A DNA stretch of 64,000 nt. It comes from an uncultured Spirochaetaceae bacterium. Lineage in GTDB: Bacteria; Spirochaetota; Spirochaetia; SZUA-6; DRHE01. Numbering within the stretch: position 1 is the first letter of the stretch; every line of letters starts with the position of its first letter. The notes under the pieces were generated by a model that saw only the letters and a program-made list of their open reading frames with translations, searched no databases and was not told where the DNA came from. Location of the stretch: the NCBI GenBank assembly GCA_964588355.1, contig CAZPPB010000002.1, forward strand, positions 16,218-80,217, written 5' to 3'. A program made the position numbers and the translations under genes. Shown here piece after piece: positions 3,508-60,495 of the stretch.

Positions 3508-3514
3508 CGGGTCT

Positions 3515-5507: not shown

Positions 5508-5512
5508 CATTC

Positions 5513-7950: not shown

Positions 7951-7953
7951 GGG

Positions 7954-8289: not shown

Positions 8290-8476
8290 GTCGCCCCTCC
8301 TCGTACACCCACAAATATAGTGAAAGGGTGGGCGAAAAACAAGGTGGGAGGCCGCCCTGACCCGCTCCCCTTTTTCGATTGACAACCCAAACCGCCGATG
8401 TTACGCTTCTCTGTCGCCGAAAAGCTCTCGGGGCGATACCCGGGAGCTCGATTTTCGTTTCGAAGGGGGGAGTGGA

Positions 8477-10409
8477 TATGGGTGACACCATACCGAAACT
8501 GATGCTGGAGCACGTGCGCAGAGAACCGGAGATGACGATCCAGTGGTCAAAAGATGCAACCGGTACGTTCCAGCCGTTCGTCTGGAGACAGGTGCTCGAC
8601 GAGGTCGAGGCCTTTGCCGCGGGTTTGCTGGACCTCGGGATCAAGCGGGGGGATCACATCGGCATGATCTCCGAGAACATGAAAGAGTGGTTTTGGGCGG
8701 ATATGGCCATTCTGTCCATCGGTGCGGTGGACGTGCCCAGGGGATCCGATTCCACGGCCCCCGAGATCCGGTACATCCTGGAACACGCCGAATGCGCCCT
8801 GTGCATCGTGGAGAATCTGGCTCAGCTGGAAAAGGTGCTCTCGATCAAGAAGAGTCTGAAAAGGCTCAAGACCCTCATCGTGCTGGATCCGGATTTCAAG
8901 AAGGTCGACGAAATTGCCGTTGCCCAAATGGCCAAAAACGCCGGCGTCAAGGTGTTTAGTTTCAAAGAGGTGCAGGAGCGGGGCCGGGAATACGCCCGCA
9001 AACATCCGGGTTTTCTCGAGGAGGACATCGCCGAGGGTAAGCCCGAGGATCTGGCCACCCTGATCTACACCTCCGGAACCACCGGGGAACCCAAGGGGGT
9101 GATGCTGACCCACAGCAACTACATGCATCAGATACCAACGCCCCTCAAGCACCTCGATATACGGAAGGGTGATATTTTCCTTTCAGTACTTCCGGTCTGG
9201 CACTCCTACGAACGGGCCATCGGCTATGTAGCCACCTTCGCCGGCTGTTCCATTGCCTATTCCAAACTGGTTGCCCAGGTCATGTTGGAGGACATGGGCA
9301 AGATCAAGCCGCAGATCTTTCCCTCGGTTCCCCGCATCTGGGAGGCGGTGAAGCGGGGCATTATCCGCAACATCGAGTCCGGCAGCTCCGTGAAAAAAGC
9401 CCTGGCCTTCTTCTTCATCTCCGTGGGTGCAGCCTACTCCAAGCTCAAGACGAGGCTCAGGGGCCTGCGGCCCCGCTTCAAGAAGTCCAGCCGCCTCGCG
9501 GATGCCCTGCTCAGCATCCTGCCCTTTCTGCTGCTTGCCCCATTGAATGCCCTTGGACAGCTGTTGGTCTTCAAGAAGATCAAGCACAGGTTGGGGGGCA
9601 AGTTCAAATTCGGCGTGTCAGGAGCCGGAGCCCTGCCGCCCCACGTGGATGAGTTCTTTGCCGCTGCGGGGATCCTGCTGCTCGAAGGTTACGGCCTTAC
9701 CGAAACCTCCCCGATCGTGTCGGTGCGGCAGAGTTTTCACCCGGTTCCCGGAACGATCGGACCGCCTCTGGAACAGGTCGAGGTCAAGGTGCTTGCCGAA
9801 GACGGTAGCGAGCTGCCTCCTGGACACAAGGGCGTGCTCTACATCCGCGGTCCCAACGTGATGAAGGGCTACTACAAGAGGCCGGAGCTGACCGCGCAGA
9901 CCATTACCGCAGACGGTTGGCTGAATACCGGAGATCTGGCCATGCTGAGTTATGACGGGGAGATCAAGATCATGGGACGGGTCAAGGAAACCGTCGTTCT
10001 GCTGGGCGGGGAGAACGTAGAACCCAGCCCGATCGAAGATACCATCTGCGAATCCGACTATGTGGATCAAGTCATGGTCGTCGGCCAGGATCAAAAATAT
10101 TTGGCCGCCCTGGTAGTGCCCAATTTTGAAACCCTGAAAGATTTTGCCGAGGAGAACGGTATCCCCTTCGAAAAGCCCGAAGACCTGCTGAACAACAATG
10201 ACGTGTACAAACTGATCATGGACGAGATCGACTCCAAGATCGGTCCCAAACGGGGCTTCAAACTCTTCGAGCGCATCAACAAGATAAAAATTCTGGTAAA
10301 ACCCTTTGAGAAAGGCGTGGAGATGACCCATACCTTGAAACTCAAACGGGATGTGATCTACGATGAGTACGACAGAGAGATAAAAGAACTATTCAAGGAA
10401 CTTCGTTAG
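8477..10409 (+). CDS. long-chain-fatty-acid--CoA ligase (AMP-binding family)
   Basis: AMP-binding motif LIYTSGTTGEPKGVMLTHSNY, YGLTE, GWLNTGD; ATG 8477 preceded by G-rich RBS. Confidence 0.85.
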
Positions 10410-44899: not shown

Positions 44900-46096
44900 A
44901 TGAGTGAAACAATGAAAGCCGTCCGGCTCTATGCGGATTGGGATCCCAAACCGGATTTCAAACTGGGGGCGAAAGACATCGACAAGAAGCAGACCTATCT
45001 GGGAAGCAAGGTCTGGCGCAATCCCAGAATGAAGATCGAAGAGGTCCCGGTGCCCAAACCCGGACCGGGGCAGGTCCTGGTCCAGGTCAAGGCCTGCGGC
45101 ATCTGCGGAAGCGACGTACACATGGCTCAGGCGGATGCGGAGGGCTACATCTGGTACCCCGGACTGACCGGCTTCCCCTGCACCCTCGGCCATGAGATGT
45201 CCGGAGTGGTCGTGGAGGGAGGTCCCGGAGCTCTGGACAAGAAAACCAACAGACCCTTCAGAGGCGGGGAATGGGTATGCGTGGAAGAGATGATCTGGTG
45301 CGGGTCCTGTCGGCCCTGTGCGGACGGCTGGCCGAACCATTGCGAACGGCTGGACGAGATCGGCTTCAATGTAGACGGGGCGTTCACCCGCTACGTGGTG
45401 CTGCCTGCGCGGGTCCTGTGGAGCCTTGATCCCCTGCGGGAAACACACAGTGACCAGGATGTGTTCAAACTCGGCAGCATGGTGGAGCCGACCAGCGTGG
45501 CCTACAATGCGGTGATCGAGCGCGGAGGCGGAGTGCGGCCGGGAGACAATGTGGTGATCCTGGGGGGCGGCCCCGTTGGGCTGGCGGCCTGTGCCGTGTT
45601 GAAGCGAAACGGTGCTGCCAATGTGATCATCTCCGAGCCGGAGGAGGGGAGGGCGGAGATCGCCCGCAAGCTTGGCGCCGATCATGTAATCAACCCGAAG
45701 AAGGAGAGTATGGCTGATCGGGTGCTGGAGATCACCCACGGGATGGGGGCGTCGATCTACCTGGAGGCGACCGGTCTTCCGACCATAGTATACCCTGAAA
45801 TCGAGCGCTGTATCTGGGAAGGACGTACCTTGAACAGTACGGTCGTTGTGGTGGCCAGAGCGGATGCCAAGATTCCGGTCACCGGAGAGGTGCTCCAGGT
45901 ACGCCGGGCACGGATTGTCGGTTCACAAGGGCACTCGGGTCACGGCACCTTCCCCCGTGTTATCGCCTCGATGGCCGCCGGAATGAACATGCTTCCCATG
46001 ATGACCAAGACCATCGGATTGGATGAGGTTCCCAAGCACATAGAGATTCTGCGCACCGACAGACGTGAGGCCAAGATCACCTGTCTGATGGATTAG
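44900..46096 (+). CDS. zinc-binding medium-chain alcohol/polyol dehydrogenase
   Basis: GHEMSGVVVEGG (catalytic Zn region), C..C..C..C structural Zn cysteines (CGSCRPCADGWPNHC), Rossmann GGGPVGLAA; ATG 44900 after GGGGG. Confidence 0.8.
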   Translation: MSETMKAVRLYADWDPKPDFKLGAKDIDKKQTYLGSKVWRNPRMKIEEVPVPKPGPGQVLVQVKACGICGSDVHMAQADAEGYIWYPGLTGFPCTLGHEMSGVVVEGGPGALDKKTNRPFRGGEWVCVEEMIWCGSCRPCADGWPNHCERLDEIGFNVDGAFTRYVVLPARVLWSLDPLRETHSDQDVFKLGSMVEPTSVAYNAVIERGGGVRPGDNVVILGGGPVGLAACAVLKRNGAANVIISEPEEGRAEIARKLGADHVINPKKESMADRVLEITHGMGASIYLEATGLPTIVYPEIERCIWEGRTLNSTVVVVARADAKIPVTGEVLQVRRARIVGSQGHSGHGTFPRVIASMAAGMNMLPMMTKTIGLDEVPKHIEILRTDRREAKITCLMD

Positions 46097-46111
46097 GAGG
46101 CAGCCAGGCTT

Positions 46112-46750
46112 ATGTTGTGGAAAAAAGAGAAATCGATCATCGACAAAATAAAAACCTACCTCGATCAAGTGGACAGGTGCCGTAATAGCTTTCGTGAGTG
46201 CATCGAGAAACTGATTTTCGACCCTGAAAACAAGGAAAACCCGGCGATCGTCGAAGAGGTGCATCGATCGGAGTCCAAAGCCGACGATCTGCGCAGGACT
46301 GTCGAGCTCCAGTTGTACGAACGGGCTTTGATACCCGAATCCAGGGGGGATGTACTGGGTCTGCTGGAAACCATGGATGCGATCCCGGGTCTGTTTCAAT
46401 CTCTTTGCTATCAATTTCTGCTGGAAAAGATCGTTATTCCCGACAGGTTCAGGGAACGCTACCTGCACCTGGTGGATCTCAATCTCAAATCCTACGATCT
46501 GGTACGGGAGGCGGTGCTGGGTCTGTTTTACAACAAGGACGTCAAGGCTCAGACGGACCTGGTGGACGCTGTGGAAAGTGATTCCGACCACGCAGAGCGG
46601 AATCTGATCCGGGACATATTCAGCAGCAAGCTTGACAAAGCGGACAAAATATTACTGAAGGAAATCGTGATCAACACGGGAGACATTTCCGATCAGGCGG
46701 AGACTGTTAAAGACAGGTTGATTCTCGCCATCATCAAGCGGAAGATCTGA
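46112..46750 (+). CDS. DUF47-family protein (third copy)
   Basis: 212 aa, DUF47-like N-terminus, immediately upstream of second PiT gene. Confidence 0.65.
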   Translation: MLWKKEKSIIDKIKTYLDQVDRCRNSFRECIEKLIFDPENKENPAIVEEVHRSESKADDLRRTVELQLYERALIPESRGDVLGLLETMDAIPGLFQSLCYQFLLEKIVIPDRFRERYLHLVDLNLKSYDLVREAVLGLFYNKDVKAQTDLVDAVESDSDHAERNLIRDIFSSKLDKADKILLKEIVINTGDISDQAETVKDRLILAIIKRKI

Positions 46751-46753
46751 TAG

Positions 46754-47680
46754 ATGTACCGGCTGCTCAGCGGGGTCTTCTTGGGCTGGTCTCTTGGCGC
46801 CAACAATTCCGCCAATAACTTCGGAACCGCCGTGTACTCGCAAAAGATCCGCTATCGAACCGCGGTCATACTCTGCGCCGTTTTCGTGATCGTCGGAGCG
46901 CTGTTGGAAGGGCAGGCCGGGATGCACACCCTGGGCGGCCTGGTGGAACAGACCGCGGACAGCGCATTTGCAGCCACCCTGGCCGCGGCCCTGACCGCTA
47001 CACTCATGAGCGTCCTGAAACTGCCGGTCTCAACCTCCCAGGCCATGGTCGGGGCGATAATCGGCATCGGCATCCTTCGGGGTGAGGTAAATTTCAGCGG
47101 ATTGACCAAGGTTATGATCGCCTGGGTTGCTACGCCGGTAGGTACGATCATAGCCACCCTGATCCTCTATCCTCTGATCGGCTGGTTTCTGCGCCTGCTT
47201 CGCTTCAACATCTTTACCCGGGACCTGGTTCTCAAGTGGGGTCTGATAATCGCCGGCTGCTACGGTTCTTACGCCCTGGGAGCCAACAACGTGGCCAACG
47301 TGACCGGGTTGTACACCCAGACCGGACAACTTACGGTGTTTCAGGCCACTCTATTGGGAGGTGTAAGCATTGCCCTAGGCGCACTGACTTACAGCAGAAA
47401 TGTGATGATCACCGTTGGCAAGAAGCTTGTCAGCCTTGATCCTTTTAGTGCCTTTATCGCGGTTTTTTCTATGGCCGTAATCGTCCACGGTTTCGCGATC
47501 ATCGGCGTGCCGGTTTCCACATCCCAGGGGATTGTCGGCTCGGTGCTGGGAATCGGGATTCTAAAAGGGGTGCAGACTATCAAGATACGCACGCTTATAA
47601 TGATTCTGTTCGGCTGGATCGGGACGCCGTCGATCGCTCTGGTCCTCGCCTACCTCATGTTCCGGTTCGTGTATCTTTGA
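46754..47680 (+). CDS. inorganic phosphate transporter, PiT family (short form)
   Basis: N-terminal GWSLGANNSANNFGTAVYS PiT signature, ~8-9 TM, 308 aa. Confidence 0.8.
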   Translation: MYRLLSGVFLGWSLGANNSANNFGTAVYSQKIRYRTAVILCAVFVIVGALLEGQAGMHTLGGLVEQTADSAFAATLAAALTATLMSVLKLPVSTSQAMVGAIIGIGILRGEVNFSGLTKVMIAWVATPVGTIIATLILYPLIGWFLRLLRFNIFTRDLVLKWGLIIAGCYGSYALGANNVANVTGLYTQTGQLTVFQATLLGGVSIALGALTYSRNVMITVGKKLVSLDPFSAFIAVFSMAVIVHGFAIIGVPVSTSQGIVGSVLGIGILKGVQTIKIRTLIMILFGWIGTPSIALVLAYLMFRFVYL

Positions 47681-47693
47681 TCCATTGTTGCAG

Positions 47694-48170
47694 ATGCCCT
47701 TCCGGCCAAGCCCTGTGGGAAGATTCCCCGCGATATTGCACTATCTTCAGCTTGTTCGGATAATGCTATGGAGTGTGTACGACCTGGGGGCGGAGATCGG
47801 CGGTTATCTGGCGCGCAGGGCTGTGGAGGCCCTCGGGGTTAAACCTGCGGATGTCCAAAGCTACGGCAAAGGTGCCATTGTGGGGGTCGATGGCGAGATC
47901 GAACATGCCGCCGCCATTCTCCACCCCAGATTCGGCAAGCCCGTACGCGCAGCCGTGGAGAAGGGTGATGATATCATCCCCTCCACGAAGAAAATGGGCG
48001 GAGCCGGCGCTTCCATCACCATGCCGCTTACGAACAAGGACAGCATCTGGAGTTTTGACCATATGGACGCGGCGGAAATCAGCATACCCGATGCACCGCG
48101 TCCGGATGAAATCGTCGTGGCCGTGGTGGTCGCAGACCGCGGACGCCCGCTGGCCCGTGTGTCCACTTGA
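47694..48170 (+). CDS. amino-acid-synthesis-family-like protein (PF06684-like), N-terminally short
   Basis: YGKGAIVGVDGEIEHAAAILHP..IPDAPRPDEIVVAVVVADRGRPLARV matches my recollection of the family core; lacks the usual first ~50 residues. Confidence 0.5.
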   Translation: MPFRPSPVGRFPAILHYLQLVRIMLWSVYDLGAEIGGYLARRAVEALGVKPADVQSYGKGAIVGVDGEIEHAAAILHPRFGKPVRAAVEKGDDIIPSTKKMGGAGASITMPLTNKDSIWSFDHMDAAEISIPDAPRPDEIVVAVVVADRGRPLARVST

Positions 48171-48205
48171 GCAATATTCCGTTTACGTATGGGAGGAGTG
48201 ATGGT

Positions 48206-48517
48206 TTGATAAAAATCATGATCCTTTTGAAGAGGCAGGAACACCTCAGCTTCGAGGAATTCAAAAAATGGTGGCTTGGGCAGCATCAGGAAATGGCTGC
48301 TCAGATGCCGAAGCTCAGACGGGCATGCTTCAACCTGGTTCAGGGAGAAAAGGATGGTCTGTACGACGGTGTGTCCGAGCTCTGGTTTGACACCCTCGCT
48401 GATTTCGAATCGGCCTACCAATCGGAGATCGGCAAGAAGGTAGCCGCCGATTCACTGGCCCACGTGAGCAGGCGTGATCGGCTGATCGTCGAGGAGCATA
48501 CGATAGTCGGCGATTAG
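48206..48517 (+). CDS. EthD-domain protein (dimeric alpha+beta barrel)
   Basis: MIKIMILLKRQEHLSFEEFKKWWLGQH.. typical EthD N-terminus; TTG start with GGGAGGAG RBS 7 nt upstream. Confidence 0.55.
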   Translation: MIKIMILLKRQEHLSFEEFKKWWLGQHQEMAAQMPKLRRACFNLVQGEKDGLYDGVSELWFDTLADFESAYQSEIGKKVAADSLAHVSRRDRLIVEEHTIVGD

Positions 48518-48611
48518 GCGCCGCGGTGCTGGGATGGGCGCTTGTAGCCCCGGTGGTCGAACTCTGGAAGACGCTTCCGACAGTTGTCCCTGCTTGCGGC
48601 AGCACTACATC

Positions 48612-51185
48612 TCATTGCTCTGCCGGCAGTACACCACCTGCACTAGCCCAGTCCGGCGGAAGTGTACCTATACGAGAAATACGGTTAAAAATTTCCTCTG
48701 CTTCTTTCTTTTTACCGGCACGCGTGAGAAGTGTCGACAGGTCGGTAAGGTAGCCGACGGTATTTTCATGATCCGGACCGTCTGTACGTTCCTGGAACGC
48801 CAGGGCGTTGCGAAGAAGGCCTTCCGCTTCATCGTATTGTTCGAGTCCCACCAGCAACATGGCCAGGGTGTGAGTTGCCGCCACGGTTGAGGAGTTGTCC
48901 GATTCAAAAGCTTTTGAGTAGATCGATACCGAGCGGCGGGCGAGCGGCTCTCCTTCACGATAACGGCCGGACAAATATAGATCCCAGGCCACATTGTTTA
49001 GAAATTGGCCCATTTCGGCAAGGTTGTCGTCGGCGGTGAAAGCCAATTCCGCCCGGTCCAGATAATTGGCAGCCAGATTTTGATGCCCGAAAATGATGTA
49101 AAGTGCTCCGATGGATGCTATGGTCTCGGTATATTCGGGATCCTCGGGATCGAGGGACTCGGCGAAGCGGGTAAACAAATTGAGTTCATCCTCAGCTCTT
49201 TTCATGTCTCCGGAGCCGTAGAAACCGGTGATGCGATCGAAGAACCCGCTCGCTATCTGTGCCGTGTCGAATGACCTGATATCTCGCTGGAGGTCCTCAG
49301 GGAAATGGAAAGAGCGGAGGAGATCGAAGCAAAGTTCAGATTCTGAATGATTCTTTATAGAGGCACATTGGAGCAACCATAACTGATTGTCCCGAAACAG
49401 ATATACTTGAGTAAGCCGCATAGTCATCTGTTGGTTATCGACGTTAAACTTGATCCATTCGCCGGGAACTGAATCAATAGTTACGTCTTCCCGGGACACA
49501 ACCTCGGTTCCGGACATTGCACTTTTCATCGCTTCGACTAACATGGTTACAAACCATGTGGACACAGCGTTACTCGGAACGGGGATCAACACGACAGTGA
49601 TATTCGGATCGTAGCCAAAGCCCGTCCACAGCCCGCCTCCGAATTGTACGGTTACCTCAGGACCCATGGTCTGTTGAAAGAGCTCCGTGTCCACCGTCCA
49701 CCCCTCAGGGGCGAAACCGAAGTATTTTCTCCATTGTCGTACGGTTTCCGGATCATCGACTTTTTTCCCCTGCTGCTCGAGTGTTTCAGTTTCCGCATCC
49801 GGGCTTTGATCCTTCATTATGAAGGTCTGCGCGACCAGTTCAGGGGATGCTTCATCGATCTCGATTATATATCCCCCTGTCCAGTATCCTTCAGCATCCG
49901 ACACGGCAAGCGTGTGCTTTCCGGCCTTTGTCGCCTGGAAGGTAAGCCTGGAATTGAGGCCGAGGACTCCGCCTCCGCTGTCGTCATCCTCCACAGGAGT
50001 CGATACTCCGGCCATATCGATGCAGACATAAGGATCGATCATCACTGATTCAACCTCTACGGTCACCTTTTGGCCTTGCTGCAGGTCGATCACGAACCAA
50101 TCGTAGTCAAACGGAAAGTCCAGGTTGGCCGTGTAAGAATGTCCGACTTCCAGCTCCCGTGCATCGTCGGGATCTGATATCCGGGCCAGCGGTTGGTTGC
50201 TTTCAAGAAGGACTTCGCCCCTGCCCTCAACCATGGGTTCGACCATGACGTAATGAAAATCCTGCTGGGATTCTAAATAAAGGGTTTCGGTCATTCCTCC
50301 TTCAAGGTCGTCAGCTGAACCGAGGGTGTCGCCGTATCGATCGAGAATATACAATGCAATGTCCAGGTCACTTTGTGCCGTAAGGTCAATGGCTGAACCC
50401 GGAGCAGTCACCGCTACGTACACTCCTGTGTCCCAAACATTCTCGAGTGTGAACTCTTGAGTGGTACTCCCCTCCCCATACGAGAGCTCTCTGAGATCTA
50501 ATCCGGTCACATCGACGCCCGAGGTCATCTGCTCCAGCCTTTGCAGGACATCCTCAGCCGACGCTGCAAGTGCGAAGTTGTTCCCGGCCATCGACAGGCT
50601 CGAGATCCCGATGACTTCACCGCGGTCGGTGGCCAGCACGCCACCGCTCTGCCCGCCTGCGATCGCCGCATCCGTTTGGAAAAAGGTTAATTCAATCCTC
50701 GTCCACTCGCGAATACGTGAGAGAATGCCCCGTGTTATGGTGGGCTCAGGGAATGCCTCGGTCTCGACCGGATAGCCGATGAGATATACATCGCTGCCGA
50801 TTTCCACATTTTCCCGAGGCACAAAGGTGATAGCCGCAACATCAATGGCGACTGGACCGAGCAGAGCGAGATCCCCGATCAGATCGATGAAGGCGACGGG
50901 TACCTTCTGAAGTGCCGTGCCCTCGGCAAAGGTCACTCCGACCTCCGAGTATGGCCAAACAACATGGGCGTTGGTCAGAATATAACCATCGTCCATCAAT
51001 GTGCCGCTTCCGGAGCCCAAAGGTGTATACACGAAGGCCAGGGAAGGGCTGATTCGATCGTAAACCTCTTTCGCACTCAACAGCGGCAGAATATCGCTGT
51101 CCGTTCGGCTGAGCGTTGTTGTGCAACCGATGGTCAGGACGAAAAGAGTACAAGCACAAAGGAGTTTAACGATACCTCTATACAT
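48612..51185 (-). CDS. large lipoprotein with trypsin-like (S1) serine protease domain and C-terminal TPR repeats
   Basis: Signal/lipobox LTIGC; ILTNAHVV (His), GGQSGGVL (Ser) in N-terminal ~250 aa; C-terminal ~250 aa with TPR-like helical repeats (YDEAEGLLRNALAF..). Confidence 0.7.
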   Translation of the reverse strand: MYRGIVKLLCACTLFVLTIGCTTTLSRTDSDILPLLSAKEVYDRISPSLAFVYTPLGSGSGTLMDDGYILTNAHVVWPYSEVGVTFAEGTALQKVPVAFIDLIGDLALLGPVAIDVAAITFVPRENVEIGSDVYLIGYPVETEAFPEPTITRGILSRIREWTRIELTFFQTDAAIAGGQSGGVLATDRGEVIGISSLSMAGNNFALAASAEDVLQRLEQMTSGVDVTGLDLRELSYGEGSTTQEFTLENVWDTGVYVAVTAPGSAIDLTAQSDLDIALYILDRYGDTLGSADDLEGGMTETLYLESQQDFHYVMVEPMVEGRGEVLLESNQPLARISDPDDARELEVGHSYTANLDFPFDYDWFVIDLQQGQKVTVEVESVMIDPYVCIDMAGVSTPVEDDDSGGGVLGLNSRLTFQATKAGKHTLAVSDAEGYWTGGYIIEIDEASPELVAQTFIMKDQSPDAETETLEQQGKKVDDPETVRQWRKYFGFAPEGWTVDTELFQQTMGPEVTVQFGGGLWTGFGYDPNITVVLIPVPSNAVSTWFVTMLVEAMKSAMSGTEVVSREDVTIDSVPGEWIKFNVDNQQMTMRLTQVYLFRDNQLWLLQCASIKNHSESELCFDLLRSFHFPEDLQRDIRSFDTAQIASGFFDRITGFYGSGDMKRAEDELNLFTRFAESLDPEDPEYTETIASIGALYIIFGHQNLAANYLDRAELAFTADDNLAEMGQFLNNVAWDLYLSGRYREGEPLARRSVSIYSKAFESDNSSTVAATHTLAMLLVGLEQYDEAEGLLRNALAFQERTDGPDHENTVGYLTDLSTLLTRAGKKKEAEEIFNRISRIGTLPPDWASAGGVLPAEQ

Positions 51186-51561
51186 AACATTTACCTCCTA
51201 TCTCCATACCCGGACAGGCCAGTTTGAGAGACAGCAGACGGCGTCTGAATCAGCATCGAATACCCCAAGAGCAAAGACATGGTAATTCGAACTCCTTATC
51301 TGTTGTTATTGGTATTCCCTATCGGCCGACTCATCCGTAACCGTCCTCAATCTGAAGTAAGCAATTCTTATGCCATTCCTATGATTCAGTATAATTACTT
51401 AGGATGGAGATAATTAACTATTGCGTATACTTATGGGTCCGCAAGCTTCTGCAGTTTTTGTTGCGGATCTTTGGCAATGAAGTTACGCTGTACCACCTGT
51501 GACAAGACACCGGTTCTCTGGGAGGAATCGTGCTGCCCGAGCCGTTGCTCTGGTACTCGCC

Positions 51562-52440
51562 TTAGCTATATTTGCGTCGAATCAACTCTTCGACTTCCTT
51601 GGGAGAAGATCTGAACGGGCCGTTTCCCTCCATCTTGAGACTCGTGACTGCGGCAGCCCAGATCGTGGCCTCTGCAGGATCGCTCGTCAGTCGGCGACAG
51701 GCATAGGCGGCGATACAGGTGTCTCCGCGGCCGCTGCGGCCGATCAGCTCCCTGGGGAAGAATCCCGCTTCGTGAAATTGCCGACCGTCGTAGACCAGAA
51801 CCCCGTCCCTGTGGGTCAGGACGATCTCTCTCGAGCCCATGCCGAAGAGCATCCGCGCCGCCTCTCGCAGATCCCGGCTCCCGGTCAGGATCTCCGCCTC
51901 GGCTATATCCGCTTTCAAGAATTGGACCAGAGGGAGCACTTCTTCCCTCTCCGGCCAGGGTTCGGCAACCAGCAGGCCGTCCATAACCGACCGTACGTAT
52001 CCCTGTACGTCCAAGGCAATCATCGCCTTCCTCTGCTCAAGAGCCTGCAAGACATCCAGTCCCACCTCTCCTCGGAACGAGGCGCCCACCACTGCCGTCT
52101 TTGTACGAAGATCCGCCACCTGTTCCGGGTGGAAGGAGCCTGCAGATGCATCCACGAAGATCCGGCGTTCATCCGGATTGTTGCTGGGATAGACCAAACG
52201 GAGTCTGGTCGACTCGCGGGTATACTCGGGAAACACATCGATGCCCAGCGCTTCCAGCGATTTGACCACGTGAATGTCTTCAGCCGCCAGGCGTGTAACT
52301 GCGCAGGTTCTCAGGTCGAACCGGGCGGCGACATTGGCGCCGTAGTTGAAGGCCCCCCCATCCACCACGCGTTCTCCGCTTTGGTCGATAATTGTATCCT
52401 TGGTGTAGTTGCCGATGAAGGTCACATCGTAGCTCTTCAT
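51562..52440 (-). CDS. PfkB-family carbohydrate kinase
   Basis: GRSGRGDTCIAAY motif; start MKSYDVTFIGN with GGAGA RBS. Confidence 0.8.
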   Translation of the reverse strand: MKSYDVTFIGNYTKDTIIDQSGERVVDGGAFNYGANVAARFDLRTCAVTRLAAEDIHVVKSLEALGIDVFPEYTRESTRLRLVYPSNNPDERRIFVDASAGSFHPEQVADLRTKTAVVGASFRGEVGLDVLQALEQRKAMIALDVQGYVRSVMDGLLVAEPWPEREEVLPLVQFLKADIAEAEILTGSRDLREAARMLFGMGSREIVLTHRDGVLVYDGRQFHEAGFFPRELIGRSGRGDTCIAAYACRRLTSDPAEATIWAAAVTSLKMEGNGPFRSSPKEVEELIRRKYS

Positions 52441-52457
52441 TGCCGGGGTCTCCAATT

Positions 52458-53252
52458 TCAGGGAAAGGTCTCGCTCCAAAAGGCCCGGATTCGCTGCAAC
52501 GATTCCGTCGAGTCGCCTTCTGGACTGTACTCGAATCCGACGAAGCCGTTGTACCCGAAAGCGGCCAGGCGGGACAGGACGGATTTCCAGTCGATATTGC
52601 CCGTTCCCGGCTCGTGCCTGCCCGGAACATCGGCGACATGGATGTATCCGATATGTCTAACGTACTCCTTCAAGACGGCGGAAAGGTCGACCCCCATCAC
52701 GCCCAGGTGATACAGGTCACACAGCACCTTCAACCTGCTGTCACCGATTTCCTCTATCAGTTGCGCAGCCGTCTGTATATCGGACAGCCAATAACCGGGG
52801 TGGTCGATTCGGGTGTTCAGCGGCTCAAGAACCAGTTGGAGACCGGGGGGCAACAGCTCGAGAGCTTTCCCGAGGCCCAGTCGCGCATTTTTGTACTTTT
52901 GTTCGCCAGGAATTTCGGGGTAGGAATTTACAACCGCGCCGGTTTCGGTGAGCTCGTTACTGAGCAGCATCAGGGTCCCGCATTCCATAGACTCGGCGGT
53001 TTCAATACCAGCCTGCAGATCTTGAAGAAAAAGATCGTGGGTTTGCTCTGCTACCAGGCTGCCACGGCGGTGACCACTGAAGTTGACCACCCGCACCCCT
53101 TCTTGGCTGCAGGTGGCGGTGAGTGCCGGAATGTTTTTATCTCTCCAGCCCCAAAATTCGACGTATTCGAACCCCTGGCCGGCGATTCTGCGGATCTTTT
53201 CCAGCAGATGCAGTTCGGGGAAGAGCATCTCAAAGCAGATGACCGGCTTCAA
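52458..53252 (-). CDS. sugar phosphate isomerase/epimerase (xylose-isomerase-like TIM barrel; hydroxypyruvate-isomerase-like)
   Basis: 264 aa; FEYVEFW, LEPLN, HVADVPGRHEPGTG, GFEYSP features of the AP-endonuclease-2/Hyi-like family. Confidence 0.7.
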   Translation of the reverse strand: MKPVICFEMLFPELHLLEKIRRIAGQGFEYVEFWGWRDKNIPALTATCSQEGVRVVNFSGHRRGSLVAEQTHDLFLQDLQAGIETAESMECGTLMLLSNELTETGAVVNSYPEIPGEQKYKNARLGLGKALELLPPGLQLVLEPLNTRIDHPGYWLSDIQTAAQLIEEIGDSRLKVLCDLYHLGVMGVDLSAVLKEYVRHIGYIHVADVPGRHEPGTGNIDWKSVLSRLAAFGYNGFVGFEYSPEGDSTESLQRIRAFWSETFP

Positions 53253-53257
53253 CGAGT

Positions 53258-54346
53258 CTAGTCCTCCGCCGGCAGAATGTGAAGGCTCTTCTCCTTGAGA
53301 AGGATCGTCACCTCCTGATCGGTTGTGAAGAGGGTGTGCTCGCGGGGGTTGGGGACCTTAACGGTGATGAGCCTGTCTTCCAGTTCGACTTCATATACGA
53401 TCTCCGAGCCCAGGTATACCGATTCCTTGATCACTCCGGTGAGCCCCTTCCGCCTCTTCGATTCCAGTGCTACGGATTCGGGGCGGACCACGACGACCAC
53501 TTTCATACCCTCCACAAGGCTCTCCGTTACTGCGGACACCTTCAGCTTCGTTCCGTGCATATCCACTGTGGCGCTTGCCGGTGAGTCGATGGATGTGATC
53601 GTGGCCTCGAGGAAATTGGCTTTGCCTATAAAGTCTGCAACGAAGCGATTGGCCGGGTGGGCGTAGATTTCCGACGGGGTGCCGATCTGCTGAATTCGAC
53701 CTTCGTGCATGATCACGACCCTGTCGGACAGGGTCATGGCCTCCTCTTGGTCGTGAGTCACATAAACCGATGTGATGCCGACCCTGCGCTGGAGCTTGCG
53801 GATCTCGATGCGGGTGGATTCCCGCAGCTTGGCGTCGAGATTGGAAAGTGGCTCGTCCAGGAGAAGGACCTTGGGTTCCATGATCAACGAACGAGCCAGA
53901 CTGACCCGCTGCTGCTGGCCCCCGGACAGCTGTGCCGGGGAGCGGTTGCCCATCCCTTTCAGCCCCACCAGGCGCATCACTTCTTCGACTCGTTCTTTGA
54001 TTTGTTTACCGCTCACCCGATGGATCTTCAATCCGTATTGGATATTCTGAGCGACCGTCATGTGCGGGAACAGGGCGTAATTCTGAAACACCATGGTGGT
54101 GGGACGGCGGTTGGGCGGGACGTCGTTCAACCGTTCCCCATCCAGGTAGATGTCTCCGGAAGTCGGAAATTCGAAGCCCGCTATCATCCTCAGCGTGGTG
54201 GTCTTACCGCAGCCCGAAGGACCCAGCAGCGTGACCAATTCGCCTTCCTGCACCTGCAGGCTGACCTGATCCACCGCCACCACGGATTCCTTCGCGCCGC
54301 CGAATACCTTCACCAGATGGTTCAGTACCAGATAGTCATCCCTCAT
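53258..54346 (-). CDS. ABC transporter ATP-binding protein (FbpC/AfuC/PotA type)
   Basis: LLGPSGCGKTT, LSGGQQQRVSLARSL, LLLDEPLSNLD. Confidence 0.9.
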   Translation of the reverse strand: MRDDYLVLNHLVKVFGGAKESVVAVDQVSLQVQEGELVTLLGPSGCGKTTTLRMIAGFEFPTSGDIYLDGERLNDVPPNRRPTTMVFQNYALFPHMTVAQNIQYGLKIHRVSGKQIKERVEEVMRLVGLKGMGNRSPAQLSGGQQQRVSLARSLIMEPKVLLLDEPLSNLDAKLRESTRIEIRKLQRRVGITSVYVTHDQEEAMTLSDRVVIMHEGRIQQIGTPSEIYAHPANRFVADFIGKANFLEATITSIDSPASATVDMHGTKLKVSAVTESLVEGMKVVVVVRPESVALESKRRKGLTGVIKESVYLGSEIVYEVELEDRLITVKVPNPREHTLFTTDQEVTILLKEKSLHILPAED

Positions 54347-54356
54347 ACGCCACTCC

Positions 54357-56069
54357 TTAGCTGATTATAGTGGTGGTACGCACGCCCCGCCCGATCCGGT
54401 TGACCACCAGCTGGATGATGCCCAGGGAGATCATGACGATGACGATCAATAAAAGGCTCATGGCCGCCGCGGGTGCGTATTGGCTGTTGTCCACAAAACC
54501 GAGTATGGCCACCGTAATCAGGTTCCACTTTCCCGAGACCACGAAGATAACGGCGCTGATGGCGGTCATGGCCTTCACGAAACCGAAGGCCAGGCCGGAG
54601 AAGAAGGCCGGTGCGATCATAGGCAGGGTGATCTTGCGAAAGGTCGTGCTGCTGTCCGCTCCCAGGTCTGTAGAGGCTTCCTCGATCGCAGGGTCGATCT
54701 GCTGCAAGGCTGCTATTCCCGAGCGGATACCCACCGGCATGTTCCTGAAAAGGAGCAGCAGCACGATGATCCAGGCGGTGCCCGTCAGGATGAATGGAAA
54801 CAGGGCGGAGCGCTGGTTGAAGGCAAGGATGTAACCGATGCCCACCACGGTCCCGGGCACGGCGAAGGTCAGCATGGAGATGAACTCCATGACACCCCGG
54901 CCGATGAACCGCTTACGGATAACCAGAAAAGCGATGAACATACCCAGTAAACCGGTCAGCGGCGTGGCCAGTGTGGAAAGACTCAAAGAGTCGATGATGT
55001 AGCCCTTCCCGACGCGGAACATCTGGATGTAGTTGTTCAGCGTCAGTGTGCGATCCACCCCCCACAGTTTTTGAAAGGAACCATAGATGATCGTGCCGTA
55101 GAGCAGAAACACCATAGCCGTGAAGGCGATGCAGAGGGTGTACACCGGCACCTTGATATACCACTCCAGGCGCTTGATCGTCGCTGCAGTAGGTTTGCCC
55201 GTCACCGTAACGTAGCTTTTTCGGGAGACCCAGTACTTCTGAAGAAAGAAGGCCACAGTGGTGGGGATGAACAGCAGCACCGCCAGGGTGGCGCCCCGGG
55301 ACAGGTCGTACATGCCCGTGATCTGGAGAAAAGCCTGCACCGAGAGCACCCTGAAGTCCCCGGAAATGATCATCGGATTGCCGAAATCCGCCATGCTCTG
55401 AATGAACACCAGCAGCCAGGCGCTGGCGATCCCTGGGATCGACAAGGGAAGAGTTACGGTGGTAAATACTCTTGCCCGGGAGGCTCCCAGATCCATGGAA
55501 GCCTCCTCCAAGGCCGGATCGATGGCCTGGAGCACGCCGTAGAGAACGAGGAAGGCTGTAGGACCGTAGGCGATCGTTTCGACAAAAACCAGCCCTCCCA
55601 GCCCGTAGATCGAGTACTCACCAAGGATCCGCTTCAGGATGGGTGATAGGCTACCCGCGCGGCCGAACAGAAGGATCGTGGACAGGGCCACTACGAACGG
55701 TGGAGAAATGATGGGGAAGGTTATGGTCTGGCGGAAGAAGCCCTTCAACGGCAGGGGAGTGCGGGTCAGAGCGTAGGCGAATCCGAAGCCCATGATCGAA
55801 CCCGTGGTAGCGGTGATCGCTCCCAGTAGAATCGAGTTAAGGAACGGCTGGTAGTAGTAGCGAGCGGAAAACACGGCCGCATAGTTGGATGGATCGAACT
55901 TCTCGTCGACTACCAGACTGTAGCGGAAGACCTGGAATATGGGAAAGGCTACGAAGAGGATGAGGAAGTAGAAGATCGCCAGGATCGCCACCAGCAGCAA
56001 GGGCTCCTTCCATATGATCCGCATGCTGGCAATGATCTCTTTGGCACGGCGGGAGGTCGCATTCGTCAT
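54357..56069 (-). CDS. ABC transporter permease, fused two-domain FbpB/AfuB type
   Basis: 570 aa, two permease repeats (EEASMDLGASRARVF.. and EEASTDLGADSSTTFRKITLP). Confidence 0.85.
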   Translation of the reverse strand: MTNATSRRAKEIIASMRIIWKEPLLLVAILAIFYFLILFVAFPIFQVFRYSLVVDEKFDPSNYAAVFSARYYYQPFLNSILLGAITATTGSIMGFGFAYALTRTPLPLKGFFRQTITFPIISPPFVVALSTILLFGRAGSLSPILKRILGEYSIYGLGGLVFVETIAYGPTAFLVLYGVLQAIDPALEEASMDLGASRARVFTTVTLPLSIPGIASAWLLVFIQSMADFGNPMIISGDFRVLSVQAFLQITGMYDLSRGATLAVLLFIPTTVAFFLQKYWVSRKSYVTVTGKPTAATIKRLEWYIKVPVYTLCIAFTAMVFLLYGTIIYGSFQKLWGVDRTLTLNNYIQMFRVGKGYIIDSLSLSTLATPLTGLLGMFIAFLVIRKRFIGRGVMEFISMLTFAVPGTVVGIGYILAFNQRSALFPFILTGTAWIIVLLLLFRNMPVGIRSGIAALQQIDPAIEEASTDLGADSSTTFRKITLPMIAPAFFSGLAFGFVKAMTAISAVIFVVSGKWNLITVAILGFVDNSQYAPAAAMSLLLIVIVMISLGIIQLVVNRIGRGVRTTTIIS

Positions 56070-56163
56070 CTCTTTCTGGATGCCTCCTCGGATTATAGAG
56101 AAAAATCCCCACCCCTCAAAGGGTGAGGGGCGGGGAGATCTGTCTAAGTGGTATGGTCGCCGA

Positions 56164-57165
56164 TTACTTGCCGATCCGGTCCCGCCAGGCCTCGATCAGA
56201 CGATCCTTGTTTTCTCCGGCCCAGATGGCATCGTAGTCGATCAGCTTGACCTGATCCATGGTCACGGCTCCCGAAGCCACGGTGGCTTTGGGATTGACCG
56301 GCAGCCGGCTGTACTGCTGGAACAGGTCCTGGGCTTTTTTCGTGAAGCACCAGTCGATGAACTGTTTGCCCAGCTCCGGTTCGGGGCCGCCTTTGATCAG
56401 GGAAAGACCACCAACCTCGTATCCGGTTCCTTCTTCCGGGAAGGTCATGACCACCGGATAGCCCTGGTTGATCCCTTTGGCTACGATATCGTGGGAGAAG
56501 GCTATCCCCACGCCGACCTCTCCGAGACCCACCATGGGGATGCAGCCGGTGCCGGATTTCGTGTATTGGAATATGCTCTGTCTGTCGAACCGCTCCCACC
56601 AGTCGAGGGTTTCATCCTCACCGAGCATCTGCACCAGGGTGGCGTAGGTCGTATAGGCCGTGCCGGATGTGTAGGGATAGGCCATAGCCACGTTCTTGGC
56701 AAAGGCGGGATTCAGCAGGTCTCTCCAGGAAGTCGGAGCCTTTGCGCCCGTCTTGCTGAGGAAATCCTTGTTGCTGATGAAGCCGATCGCTCCTGTGTAG
56801 AAACCGGTCCACGCCCAGTCGTCTGCGTGGAGCTGTGGCTGGAGTTGAAAATCGGTGTTCGGGCGGTACGGAGCCAGCAGACCCTTGCTGGCCGCATTGA
56901 TGTGGGACGTGTTTGAGCCCGCATGCCAGACGCTGGACTGGGGATTGCTGGCCTCCGCCTCTACGCGGGCCAGGACCTCCCCGGAAGACATGCGCACCCA
57001 CTCCACGTCGATGCCGGTCTCCGCTTCGAAAGCCTCGATATAATACTGAGCCTCTTCGGTGTCGAAGGCCGTGTAGATGTGGAGCACTCGCGGCTCCTGC
57101 CCGGGGCTACCGAAGCCTGCCGCGGCAATTGCTGCGAGCAGCAATACCAGAAACAAACGTTTCAT
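56164..57165 (-). CDS. ABC transporter periplasmic substrate-binding protein (FbpA/AfuA family)
   Basis: Signal peptide MKRLFLVLLLAAIAAAGFG; SBP fold. Confidence 0.8.
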   Translation of the reverse strand: MKRLFLVLLLAAIAAAGFGSPGQEPRVLHIYTAFDTEEAQYYIEAFEAETGIDVEWVRMSSGEVLARVEAEASNPQSSVWHAGSNTSHINAASKGLLAPYRPNTDFQLQPQLHADDWAWTGFYTGAIGFISNKDFLSKTGAKAPTSWRDLLNPAFAKNVAMAYPYTSGTAYTTYATLVQMLGEDETLDWWERFDRQSIFQYTKSGTGCIPMVGLGEVGVGIAFSHDIVAKGINQGYPVVMTFPEEGTGYEVGGLSLIKGGPEPELGKQFIDWCFTKKAQDLFQQYSRLPVNPKATVASGAVTMDQVKLIDYDAIWAGENKDRLIEAWRDRIGK

Positions 57166-57414
57166 ATAAACCTCCTTGTTGTATTTTTTTGATAGTCGAG
57201 GTAAACGAATACATCAACTACCTGTTTTTTCTATCTCCTTACAATCATAACCTGGCGATATGGGCTGTCAAGGACATTTGCGATGGTATTTCTCGATCCG
57301 GCCGGGAATACCCCGCATCCCGCAGATTTCCTGGACGGATGGCATCCCCATCGTCTTGACTCCAGATCCTGGTAACATTTAGGCTTGAACCCGCCAGGAG
57401 GAAGGGAGCCGTCC

Positions 57415-58257
57415 ATGTTTAGTCGGACTCGTATAGCACTGAATCGCATCATCTATCCGAATCTCGATTTAGAAGGTTTTCTGGAACTGGCATCGGATCT
57501 CGGTCTGTCGATGGTGGAGCTGCGGAACGATCTTCCCGGCGGAAGAATCACCGACGGAATGGAACCACGGCAGGTGTGCGAGTTGGCTGATCATTATGGC
57601 GTTTCGATCGTTTCGATAAACGCTCTCCAGAAATTCAACCTGGCCGGGAATCTTCCGGCCGCCATGGAGGAGCTCAAAGCGCTCCTAGAACTTTCATCGG
57701 CTATTCACTGTCCGGCGGTCGTTCTCTGTCCCCTGAACGATCAGGACGATACAGGAGATCCGCAGCAGTGTTTCGAGCAAACCGTTAGATGCCTACAGGC
57801 CTTCCATCCGATGTTTGTTGATGCCGGCGCGCTCGGATATATCGAACCGCTCGGATTTGCCGAATCCTCTCTTTCTTCCCTGATCACCGCTCAGGCGGCG
57901 ATCAGGGAATCGAAGGCTCCTTGCTTTCGCCTTGTATATGACACGTTCCATCACTTTATTGGTCCAGACAGCCCAGAGAAGCTGAAGACAGAACTCGATG
58001 TGGGGCTGGTCGGGCTGATCCACGCCTCCGGCGTGGAGGAGGACCTCCAGAGGGAGCGATACAGGGATGGGCACCGCAGTTTGATCACGCAGGCCGATCG
58101 TTTTCGAAACGTTGAACAGATCTCTCTGTTGCTGAGCAGAGGCTACACCGGTCCTCTCTCCCTTGAACCGTTCGCATCTGAGATCCAGAATCTGCCGAGA
58201 GCTCAATTTGTCCGAGCCCTGAACCGCAGTCTCGATCTGCTATGCCGGCGGTTGTAG
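57415..58257 (+). CDS. sugar phosphate isomerase/epimerase (xylose-isomerase-like TIM barrel)
   Basis: 281 aa from MFSRTRIALN with GGAAGGGAG RBS; TIM-barrel family features (..YIEPLG.., ..DTFHH..). Confidence 0.65.
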   Translation: MFSRTRIALNRIIYPNLDLEGFLELASDLGLSMVELRNDLPGGRITDGMEPRQVCELADHYGVSIVSINALQKFNLAGNLPAAMEELKALLELSSAIHCPAVVLCPLNDQDDTGDPQQCFEQTVRCLQAFHPMFVDAGALGYIEPLGFAESSLSSLITAQAAIRESKAPCFRLVYDTFHHFIGPDSPEKLKTELDVGLVGLIHASGVEEDLQRERYRDGHRSLITQADRFRNVEQISLLLSRGYTGPLSLEPFASEIQNLPRAQFVRALNRSLDLLCRRL

Positions 58258-58406
58258 CTGGTAAATCTTCACCGGGTATTATCAGATCTGCACGACCTGA
58301 CCGGAATGACTCTTTAGATACATTCATCGTGAAGCTCAGGCCGATCGAATCTGTGTCTTTCGGCGCACTTGATCGTATCGTTACGGGTCTATACCGCTTC
58401 AGAAAA

Positions 58407-59642
58407 ATGAACTGCAGGGAGTGTAGGCTCAGCTTCAAACGGTTCCGTTACAATTCGGGGTTTGTTTCTCAACGAGTATCCTATGGTCCAGGAGTTAATA
58501 GTCGCCCGTATCCAGCCCACAGGGTGAAACCATGCACGAATCCTGACTGCAAGTACGAATACTTCCGTCCGTTCAGTTGTAAGTCGTTTTACTTCTGTCC
58601 TTCCTGCTCGCAGAAACGGACCCTGCTATTCTCCGAGTATATGAACGAGCGGCTCCTGCTGGCCTTGCTCCACCGGCAGTTCGTCTTCACTATACCCAAG
58701 CTCCTGCGGCCCTACTTCCGCCACAACCGCCGGCTGTTCTCGGAGATCAGCCGGCTCATCTTTGCGATACTCAAGCGGTTCTACGACAGAGCGGCGAAGA
58801 GGCCGGTTCGAACCGGAATGGTTCTGGCTTACCAGTTCCAGTCCTCAGGGGAGTTTTTGCGGTGGAATCCGCATTACCACTGCCTCGTGTTGGAGGGCGG
58901 GTTCGATGAGACTGGTAGATTTGTACATATCCCTTTAGGAAACCTCAATAGAATGTCAGAGTACTTCCGCCGAGTGATCATCAGGTTCTTCCTGGAAAAA
59001 GAGCTGATCAATGCCCATCTGGCAACCAGTTTGATCAACTGGCGACACTCAGGCTTTTCTGTTAATCACGAAGTTCGGATCCCCGCATTCTCTGACCAAG
59101 CCCGTAAAGCCCTCTCCCAATACATCGCCCGCCCACCTTTGTCTTTGAAGAAGATGAGTATCGAAGAGAATAGAGAGGCCACGGTGGTCTCCTACACTTC
59201 CGATAACGAATTCTTCAAGGGAAAGATCGAATCCTTCCCTGTGACCCGTTTCTTGTTGGAGCTGACACAACACATCCCTCCCCGTGGATTACAATATATC
59301 CGGCGATATGGATTGTATGCTTCCCGCACAAAGGGCAAGTGGCCGGATATGCCACTTGTGATGAGGCTCGCCCCTGCCGGATGGAAAGCCGAGCGCCTAC
59401 AGGCTTCTGAATCGATACAATCTTGCTATGATGAAGCAGCTGTTTCTGATCAAGAAAGCCGGTGCACCTGGGCCAGGCTCATCGCTCAGGTGTACGAAGT
59501 GGACCCCTTGACCTGCAGTAGATGCGGCTCGCAGATGCAGATCCTCGCCGTGATCACCGAGCCGGAAGAGGTCCGCAAGATCCTGCGGCATCTGGTGAAG
59601 ATCGGTCGATCGCCACCGGGGCTGGATCCAAACTTCGTGTAA
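58407..59642 (+). mobile_element. IS91-family (Y2, HUH rolling-circle) transposase gene
   Basis: N-terminal zinc ribbon C..C/CTNPDC/CPSC, HUH-like NPHYHCLVLEGG, C-terminal RYGLYASRTKGKW and CSRCGSQMQILAVIT typical of IS91/IS801 transposases. Confidence 0.7.
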
Positions 59643-59825
59643 TCTCTCATCTGTCTCCCTGACTGCTCCGGGGGATGAGCATGTCCCTGCAGCGTTCCTT
59701 ATCCTTCCAAAAAGCCATGTTTCTCGTTTTGAGTGCTCGACGCAGTAGCCAGGAGGGGCAGCCGTCACGGGATTTGCTTTGCGTGGCCGAGGATGAGCGG
59801 CAGAGTTGCCTCGATCGCCCGATGG

Positions 59826-60029
59826 TCACCACATTCGGAGTTTGCATGACTGGCTCGGATTATAAAAACTCCTGTCACTCCCCTGCCAGGTATATACGCT
59901 GGTGATCGGGTCGATAATCTGAACACAGGCGGCCAGTCGTCCTTCCACCAGTGTGGAGGCGATCTTCCTTGCATCCTCCATCGTTGCTGTCGTGGTCGTT
60001 GTCAAAACGGGCACACGTTTTTTCTTCAC
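59826..60029 (-). pseudogene. cutA: truncated cutA (divalent-cation tolerance protein) remnant
   Basis: GTG-start ORF VLTTTTTATMEDARKIASTLVEGRLAACVQIIDPITSVYTWQG matches CutA N-terminal ~50 aa, then loses homology and terminates; no continuation in other frames. Confidence 0.55.
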
Positions 60030-60039: not shown

Positions 60040-60495
60040 CTATCGGCGGGGTCGAATGCTGGTCAGGCTGTCCAGCAGGGCCTGCCTGTATTGGGTGAAC
60101 ACCGGATGGGGCGCTGCGGCTTCGGCCAGAGTGATGGTCCTTTCGGTCACGATGAGGGCGGTGAGATAGAGGTAGCTTTCGTTTCCCGCAGGCAGGATCC
60201 ACTCGTAGTACAGTCCCTCCCGGTCGCCGCTTTCAAAAGACTGGGCATCTGCACTGGAGCGATACCCCTCTTTTCTCAGGTGGTTCTCTAAAGCATCCCC
60301 CCAGAACGACAGATCCTTCTGCGGTTCGTTCTTTATGCTGCGAACGCGGTACAGCATTCCCTCCGGGCTTATCGCCCGATAGGAACGGCCCCCTTTGAGC
60401 TCAGCGAATCCTGCGGGAGGAACCACGGAGATCCGGGAACAGGAAACAGTGAGAAGCATCAGCGCCACTCCGAAAGGCAGTAATACTCGCCTCAT
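60040..60495 (-). CDS. hypothetical lipoprotein
   Basis: Signal peptide with lipobox LLTVSC; no motif. Confidence 0.5.
   Translation of the reverse strand: MRRVLLPFGVALMLLTVSCSRISVVPPAGFAELKGGRSYRAISPEGMLYRVRSIKNEPQKDLSFWGDALENHLRKEGYRSSADAQSFESGDREGLYYEWILPAGNESYLYLTALIVTERTITLAEAAAPHPVFTQYRQALLDSLTSIRPRR

Follow-up and report, generated by a model that had tools for sequence, protein, structure and literature searches.

An IS91-family transposase relic abuts a 3'-truncated cutA gene at a synteny breakpoint in an uncultured spirochaete

In a contig of an uncultured Spirochaetaceae bacterium, an IS91-family transposase gene lies between an isomerase gene and a fragment of cutA, and the question raised by this locus is how the rest of cutA came to be missing. 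The initial annotation of the 64-kb stretch of DNA analysed here (hereafter the window) read the element as carrying a 411-aa transposase gene, placed it next to a 'decapitated' cutA, and attributed the loss to the element itself, through one-ended transposition or an adjacent deletion. We asked what kind of element this is, where it ends, what the locus looked like before it arrived, and which history best accounts for the present arrangement.

The transposase-containing ORF (58242-59642, + strand) encodes 466 aa, or 411 aa when read from the ATG at 58407. In Pfam it matches Y2_Tnp (PF04986) with an E value of 1e-15 over residues 203-362 of the 466-aa ORF, and Zn_Tnp_IS91 (PF14319) with an E value of 6e-7 over profile positions 41-90 of 90 only. 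In NCBIfam the fragment scores 125.7 bits with NF033538 ('IS91 family transposase'), against a cutoff of 125, and covers profile positions 47-355 of 356, positions 1-46 being absent. The HxH motif (HYH, in NPHYHCLVLEGG) and the YxxxY motif (YGLY, in RYGLYASRTKGKW), which the initial annotation had quoted, were both confirmed in the ORF translation. The three profile matches bear out the assignment, so that the element belongs to the IS91 family. These matches and motifs, together with the CutA1 match described below, show that the raw observation of a transposase ORF beside a cutA fragment is real and far beyond chance. The 411-aa ORF is not, however, an intact gene. Among the 587 homologues returned by a protein search, the full-length ones measure 444-447 aa; their alignment runs from residue 98 (CTNPDC...) of the 466-aa ORF to its end, a coverage of only 79%. 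The part of the ORF with family homology is its last 369 codons and stop (58533-59642, +), an open frame that carries the Pfam and NCBIfam matches, with the zinc-binding domain present from its middle onward and the HUH/Y2 catalytic domain in full. By comparison, the intact homologue P0005 reaches 158 bits with NF033538 and covers positions 16-90 of the zinc-binding profile (PF14319). The closest full-length metagenome homologues (P0002-P0010) share 76-84% amino acid identity with the retained transposase, and IS91-family transposases of enterobacterial plasmids about 41%; similarity to the element at the DNA level was not found in plasmids. The GC content over the element (0.48-0.59, vs 0.53-0.62 around it) showed no noteworthy composition anomaly, and no tRNA or Rfam features were detected in the interval 57-61 kb.

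On the right, 235 nt of non-coding ori-side sequence (59643-59877, +) lie beyond the transposase gene, with the conserved terminus at 59857-59877. Homology to other copies of the element ends at 59877-59882 in L014, L021, L023, L036, L041, L053, L057 and L090, whose right flanks are unrelated. An alignment of 17 ends gave the conserved terminus GGATTATA(AAAAN/GGTTT)-TMCTATCA, after which the sequences are unrelated, with an invariant T one base past the terminus. The terminus in the window reads GGATTATAAAAAC-TCCTGTCA and differs from the consensus ...CTATCA by an A-to-G change (CTGTCA). Next to it, in the position of the target tetranucleotide beside oriIS, stands CTCC (59878-59881, +), which overlaps the last nucleotides of cutA. 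A T is second after ...CTATCA in all 12 independent junctions aligned, the other copies reading YTYN, and the intact cutA of L010 has TTCC at this position on the same strand. In IS91 the target tetranucleotide next to oriIS is reported to be CTTG, GTTC or a minor variant, with T kept at position 2, and insertion to occur without target duplication (PMC13181058). Where the initial annotation had proposed to look for a GTTC/CTTG-type tetranucleotide, the window has a T at position 2, which may belong to the target or to the element, and the motif is neither CTTG nor GTTC.

The junction can be compared directly with the closest relative that has an intact cutA (L010-L012), which reads ...TGGCAGGGGA|AGATCGAG. 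Set side by side at this junction, the relative has ...TACCTGGCAGGGGA|AGATCGAGG and the window ...TACCTGGCAGGGGA|GTGACAGGAG, with no nucleotide between the element and cutA; the split between element and target, including which of the two owns the invariant T, rests on a relative that is only 88% identical in the cutA region. The empty cutA site is given as ...TACCTGGCAGGGGAAGATCGAGG. Copies of the element end at 59877-59882 and synteny with the relatives starts at 59879-59881, in agreement with the earlier proposal that the element ends where cutA homology stops. These alignments show that the oriIS-side end is intact and exactly placed, and the right junction looks like a genuine transposition junction of the family type, from which we infer that it is the product of a transposase-catalysed event. 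As for secondary structure, a consensus fold of 12 ori ends gave weak stems without covariation support, and the single-strand DNA fold of the ori end was no better than that of shuffles (z 0.44). We found no meaningful inverted or direct repeats bracketing the element, and no terminal inverted repeats between its ends.

The cutA pseudogene lies on the opposite strand (59880-60029, -), with a GTG start at 60029. The 67-aa ORF called at this place (59826-60029, -) reads on into IS sequence and matches only positions 2-44 of 99 of the CutA1 profile (PF03091; E 9e-14) and 2-44 of 100 of NF041095; the intact orthologue in L010 covers positions 2-98 of the CutA1 profile. Over residues 1-54 the fragment shares 74% amino acid identity with the CutA of the relative. 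The right flank begins with a conserved 151-aa gene (60040-60495, -), used here as a synteny anchor and followed by two DUF4349 genes. It has 56 homologues, and its genome matches, where named, are all MAGs of uncultured Spirochaetaceae, Spirochaetales or Spirochaetota. The gene order DUF4349-DUF4349-151-aa gene-intact 108-aa cutA is found in L004, L006, L007 and L010-L012, and synteny with these loci ends at 59879-59881. This is 237 nt beyond the stop codon of the transposase (59642), close to the distance of about 235 bp given earlier. This limit of synteny, and the lack of any intervening nucleotide at the junction, mean that exactly 50 cutA codons (60029-59880) were kept and that the gene is a pseudogene. 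The initial estimate of about 50 codons was therefore accurate, on the evidence of both the CutA1 profile and the synteny of the relatives, and synteny with the intact gene identifies the fragment as the true orthologue of cutA. The term 'decapitated' was the wrong one, since the head (codons 1-50) is kept and the tail is gone. In the relatives cutA is followed by a convergent RlpA/SPOR lipoprotein gene (itself preceded by an SdrD-like gene in L010), a class I lysS, rpiA and others. None of these downstream neighbours (rlpA, lysS, rpiA and the others) occurs anywhere in the 64-kb window, and the 3' half of cutA was not found there with either the E. coli CutA or that of the relative as query.

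An assembly artefact could be ruled out by independent contigs. Those from three other metagenome samples (L094-L096) share with the window the 151-aa gene, the 50-codon remnant of cutA and the IS/cutA junction, with 99.6-99.9% identity where aligned without gaps. All three break off within the element, as contigs commonly do at a repeat, and in L096 the 3' non-coding part of the element has lost 42 nt between CTGCC repeats. On the left, the 429-aa protein P0001, encoded on a separate JGI contig, is 100% identical, starts at 58353 and spans the left junction; an exact-protein look-up returned no record for it or for the isomerase. The junction is genuine and has become fixed in this population, which is represented by samples 3300031537, 3300031585 and 3300077083.

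The relic extends over 58501-59877 (+), homology to other copies starting at 58501 or 58533 and ending at 59877-59882. On the left side, DNA homology to about 90 other copies begins at 58533, or at 58501 in those copies that share a 17-nt insert (CCCACAGGGTGAAACCA; 58516-58532, +) between the codons for VARIQ and CTNP. Full-length copies reach 270-350 nt further left than the copy in the window, and this additional stretch consists of 231 nt of coding sequence and an upstream region with lineage-specific palindromes, which were read in the alignment of the full-length relatives upstream of their start codon. The first 77 or so residues of full-length homologues have no counterpart in the window. 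The start codon, ~72 codons at the 5' end of the gene, the N-terminal half of the zinc-binding domain and everything on the terIS side are missing from this copy, and the terIS end is absent from the window, where IS homology begins only at 58501. About 80% of an estimated length of ~1.7 kb is retained. The 17-nt insert is missing in most copies and in all protein homologues, and is found at the same site in L020, L028, L042, L044, L045, L073, L074, L086, L087 and L082. Its effect in the window is a frameshift, with a TGA now standing in the upstream frame. Codons 1-42 of the 411-aa ORF form a fortuitous open extension, which passes through this insert, 15 nt of out-of-frame IS sequence and non-IS DNA.

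We considered whether 58258-58500 could be a degenerate 5' part of the element. Its local alignment against the 5' parts of 12 full-length copies did not surpass that of shuffles for most copies (the best alignments were reached by 6/200 and 3/200 shuffles), and neither sensitive blastn nor blastn-short nor tblastx found an IS match in this interval. The apparent matches of the same interval in the MAFFT alignment were forced, and the idea was rejected. Lacking terIS, the start codon and some 72 codons, the element is incomplete, a 'solo relic' with one real boundary. Such a relic was among the outcomes that the initial annotation had listed as refuting its reading, though here one genuine boundary, the ori end, is kept. 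The other copies, recommended as a guide to the element ends, served this purpose for the ori end, set at ~59877, but not for terIS, which the copy in the window is missing. The element is a ter-less, 5'-truncated pseudogene at a synteny breakpoint and, judged from its sequence, is dead and unable to transpose alone; the most that could still happen is that its ori end serves as substrate for a transposase provided in trans.

The left flank belongs to a different chromosomal neighbourhood. The iolI-like sugar-phosphate isomerase/epimerase gene (57415-58257, +) matches PF01261 (AP_endonuc_2 TIM barrel; E 4e-22). Its homologues are 280 aa long, one source naming them 2-keto-myo-inositol isomerase, and translation probably begins at M11 of the 290-aa ORF. 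L097, L098 and L099 share the block of ABC transporter and iolI-like isomerase genes in synteny as far as the stop codon of the isomerase, and for the left-hand genes the conserved synteny with the chromosomes of relatives extends for at least 12 kb. Each of the three loci has different genes 3' of the isomerase, which makes this boundary a variable one, and in none of them does the element stand beside the isomerase gene. In blastn, positions 1-1225 of L099 (92%) match 57038-58263 and positions 1227-1257 match 58369-58399. Native DNA 3' of the isomerase gene (58258-58399) is accordingly represented by 58258-58263 and 58369-58399, on either side of a segment of 105 bp (58264-58368) that L099 lacks and that has no other match. 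L099 diverges after 58399, and the following 101 bp of non-IS DNA (58400-58500), which form the left rearrangement junction, matched nothing by blastn or tblastx, either in 99 loci or elsewhere in the window. The 101 bp and the 105-bp segment could mean an older relic history at the isomerase locus, which counts against the account preferred below.

The two sides of the relic differ in kind. The ter side is a break inside the transposase gene and not a transposition junction, and because the element's own ter side and the neighbours rlpA, lysS and rpiA were lost as well, we read the left side as a secondary rearrangement breakpoint. The locus is likely to be a transposition relic, most simply produced by insertion into cutA and, at a later time, by an illegitimate deletion or rearrangement that had one of its endpoints within the element. 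The element would first have inserted into cutA, its ori end joining the gene after codon 50, and the later event would have removed the ter side, the 3' half of cutA and the ancestral neighbours, which may have been lost or moved elsewhere in the genome. We infer this order of events. Spirochaetes rely on a class I lysyl-tRNA synthetase. Since lysS, which encodes the class I enzyme, is probably essential, we suspect that the neighbours were relocated and not lost; a plain deletion would take lysS with it and is therefore unlikely unless those genes are now elsewhere.

The mechanism first proposed for the loss of cutA does not, as stated, fit the arrangement. An adjacent deletion by the element would begin at an element end and leave the element whole, and here some 270-350 bp of the element are gone. 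Furthermore, the retained half of cutA abuts the intact end, and the missing half was situated on the side of ter. In one-ended transposition, DNA past terIS is carried along and not deleted (PMC13181058). A different use of one-ended, ISCR-like rolling-circle transposition would be the arrival in cutA of an already truncated element together with the DNA on its left, the isomerase region being cargo. Transposition past a missing terIS is a property of the family, with a frequency of 1-14% even when terIS is present (PMC13181058). Such a cargo would have to exceed 58 kb, however, since the window contains no 3' half of cutA to the left of the element, and it would have to include genes that stand in the conserved chromosomal synteny described above, so that we regard this arrival as highly improbable.

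The initial idea can also be reworked in a form that places the element in the left flank from the outset. In this scenario a ter-less relic would have resided beside the isomerase gene, its ori end would have been nicked by a transposase supplied in trans and joined intramolecularly to CTCC in cutA, and the intervening DNA would have been deleted or inverted. It would explain why the junction between the ori end and cutA is exact and at a family-type tetranucleotide, and why the ter side shows no transposition junction; ter-less relatives of the ISCR type are, moreover, thought to act via oriIS alone (PMC13181058). The absence of the element beside the isomerase in L097-L099 argues against it, as does the A-to-G change in an otherwise conserved CTATCA terminus. 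Adjacent deletions of this sort are undocumented for IS91 in the literature covered, and the deletion would again cost lysS. We therefore hold this scenario to be improbable.

An exchange between two copies of the element deserves somewhat more attention, although we still consider it unlikely. One copy would have stood in cutA and another, truncated one 3' of the isomerase, with an inversion or translocation between them; the present element would then be chimeric, and the 3' half of cutA, rlpA and lysS would survive beside the reciprocal copy. Such an exchange spares the probably essential lysS, and the region 3' of the isomerase, which differs among the three relatives and holds extra DNA here, fits a hot spot containing older debris of mobile DNA. 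The breaks of the three contigs from the same population inside the element, as for a repeat, point in the same direction. However, no second copy or other ends of the element were found in the 64-kb window (blastn, tblastn), and none of the 83 IS-bearing loci contains the reciprocal junction, that is, the 3' half of cutA, rlpA, lysS or an L099-type isomerase flank beside a copy. Insertion into cutA followed by an illegitimate event with an endpoint inside the element is thus the account we retain.

The element shares several features with the rolling-circle insertion sequences IS91, IS801 and IS1294, namely a transposase of the HUH-Y2 family (NF033538, PF04986, PF14319) with HxH and YxxxY motifs, a tnp gene followed by ~235 nt of non-coding ori side without detectable terminal inverted repeats, a flanking tetranucleotide with T at position 2, and an estimated full length of ~1.7 kb. 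It differs from them in its amino acid identity of only ~41% to the plasmid-borne members, in the tetranucleotide YTYN, which is looser than CTTG/GTTC, and in having no upstream gene resembling orf121. Without terIS and the transposase N-terminus, the copy in the window is moreover a fragment and not an element. Like ISCR1 it has the oriIS side and no terIS, but the likeness to ISCRs is weak (81 bits with ISCR clade Ia, vs a cutoff of 925 in NCBIfam). ISCRs keep an intact transposase gene and are associated with captured genes, whereas here the gene is truncated and no cargo relationship is supported.

The copy in the window is not exceptional within its lineage. Most of the 80 transposase loci fetched are fragments, with 5' or 3' truncations, internal deletions and nested insertions, and the closest other copy found, the same locus aside, has ~82% DNA identity. 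The window copy is one more relic of a decaying lineage, which is common in sediment and saline metagenomes. The finding is an ordinary one, an unnamed IS91-family lineage in relic form, and one more decayed insertion sequence with an inactivated accessory gene in an uncultured spirochaete carries little wider weight. The cutA gene seems dispensable in this clade, since a second relative has lost it independently. For annotation purposes, the synteny breakpoint should be treated as two pseudogenes, the transposase and cutA fragments, and not as genes. The ori end and the likely target preference YTYN are now defined for an undescribed lineage of the IS91 family, which helps to delimit other copies.

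The copies of the element also contain small GC-rich inserts, of which those of 13-17 nt recur at many sites. Relative to the conserved coding sequence, insertions of 10-21 nt occur, and 17 distinct events of at least 10 nt could be counted, with a mode of 13-15 nt and a mean GC content of 77%, vs 52% for the gene. Deletions in the same copies show no comparable size mode. The motif GGCTGGGCGCCCC and close variants of it are found at 7 or more positions and in both orientations, and the 17-mer CCCAYAGGGTGAAACCA (58516-58532 in the window) has a single site, at which it occurs in copies from at least four sub-lineages. Both L045 and L073 contain the 17-mer, in L073 together with the 13-mer; L018 has neither and is 96-98% identical to them on both sides. 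The immediate flanks are identical between L045/L073 and the insert-free L018, which argues for the recent gain or loss of a precise oligonucleotide, or for very short conversion tracts.

Several origins and roles for these inserts were examined and rejected. They are not copies of parts of the element, the motifs being absent from insert-free elements, and they do not derive from host DNA, since neither the ~300 kb of host flanks nor the window contains the motifs more often than chance would give. In viral contigs motif matches stand in unrelated contexts, in a number compatible with chance on a rough estimate of the collection size. The inserts do not generally restore the frame, an exception being the 13+17 nt of L073/L074, and a pair of coupled ORFs like IS91 orf121-tnpA is ruled out, as the 17-mer splits the zinc-binding domain mid-way. 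A literature search for comparable tiny mobile repeats yielded no direct precedent. Among known repeats, the very small dispersed repeats (SDRs) of cyanobacteria are 21-27 nt long, and the mobile GC clusters or bypass elements of mitochondria offer another lead for small GC-rich inserts. The IS inserts resemble both in being short, partly palindromic, present in both orientations, nested and without target duplication, and in that such sequences can sit within coding sequence and other repeats. They differ in being shorter and mostly frame-breaking, with no sign of bypass or removal, and in being found only in this IS lineage and not in the ~300 kb of flanking host DNA.

It is conceivable, if rather doubtful, that the inserts behave like mobile or templated units and reflect an undescribed process that specifically disables this transposon family. 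It might consist in ultra-small inserted elements that form a class of their own, or in a templated mechanism that is host or element-borne. These inserts are the only part of our observations with wider potential, as a specific insertion or templated inactivation would be a new phenomenon in transposon biology. The copies that bear inserts usually bear other lesions too, and the inserts therefore look like inactivating lesions and not like functional features.

Copies of the IS91-family lineage to which the window's 5′-truncated relic belongs repeatedly carry small inserts of 13-17 nt, which are GC-rich and partly palindromic. The window copy carries one at 58516-58532, and others were found in the database loci L020, L028, L029, L031, L042, L044, L045, L060, L061, L073, L074, L078, L082, L084, L086 and L087, among others. 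Motifs resembling GGCTGGGCGCCCC occupy at least seven sites within the IS copies and occur in both orientations; the CCCAYAGGGTGAAACCA insert is found at a single site in at least four sub-lineages of the IS. Such an insert is the sole difference between near-identical sister copies.

The IS homology ends at one common point, at about reference position 830 of the transposase gene, in L058 (~541), L070 (~3529), L073 (~836) and L074 (~1075), which belong to different sub-lineages, and the sequence past the break is TATGCGAACTGGAA... in all of them. This is what a second element with a favoured insertion site in the transposase gene would produce. A separate 1.4-kb insertion lies near position ~830 of the gene in L037.

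At the ori end, 3′ of the transposase gene, a single insertion locus with the common flank AATCGGCGGGGG... was seen in three samples (L018 ~3040-3066, L053 ~3815-3850 and L079 ~2826-2870), with the terminal (TCC)TATCACT forming partial tandem repeats there (one, three or four of them). This pattern suggests that oriIS underwent repeated nicking and rejoining, or slippage. In the 3′ non-coding region of the IS, L096, a population variant of the window locus from another metagenome sample, is missing 42 nt relative to window 59761-59802, and this deletion is bounded by two CTGCC repeats.

On the cutA side, a related Spirochaetaceae MAG (L005:6258-6470, 75% identity) has an internal cutA deletion without any IS, in which the 5′ ~37 codons are fused to the final ~20 codons. 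Given this independent deletion, cutA appears to be dispensable in this Spirochaetaceae clade.

At the left flank, the open frame running into the transposase fragment begins at an ATG close to the 3′ end of the isomerase gene, inside its final codons (58242-58257) but in a different frame, and read-through transcription could therefore give a chimeric product of 466 aa; gene-caller versions of this ORF span 411-429 aa. Directly after the isomerase stop, a 105-bp segment (58264-58368) is not present in the 92%-identical relative L099 and had no match in any other locus fetched; it may have been gained in the window or lost from L099. Further upstream, ~3.9 kb of the window (47682-51604) is missing from the syntenic relative L098, whose positions 505-2091 and 2191-8843 correspond to window 46095-47681 and 51605-58257, respectively.
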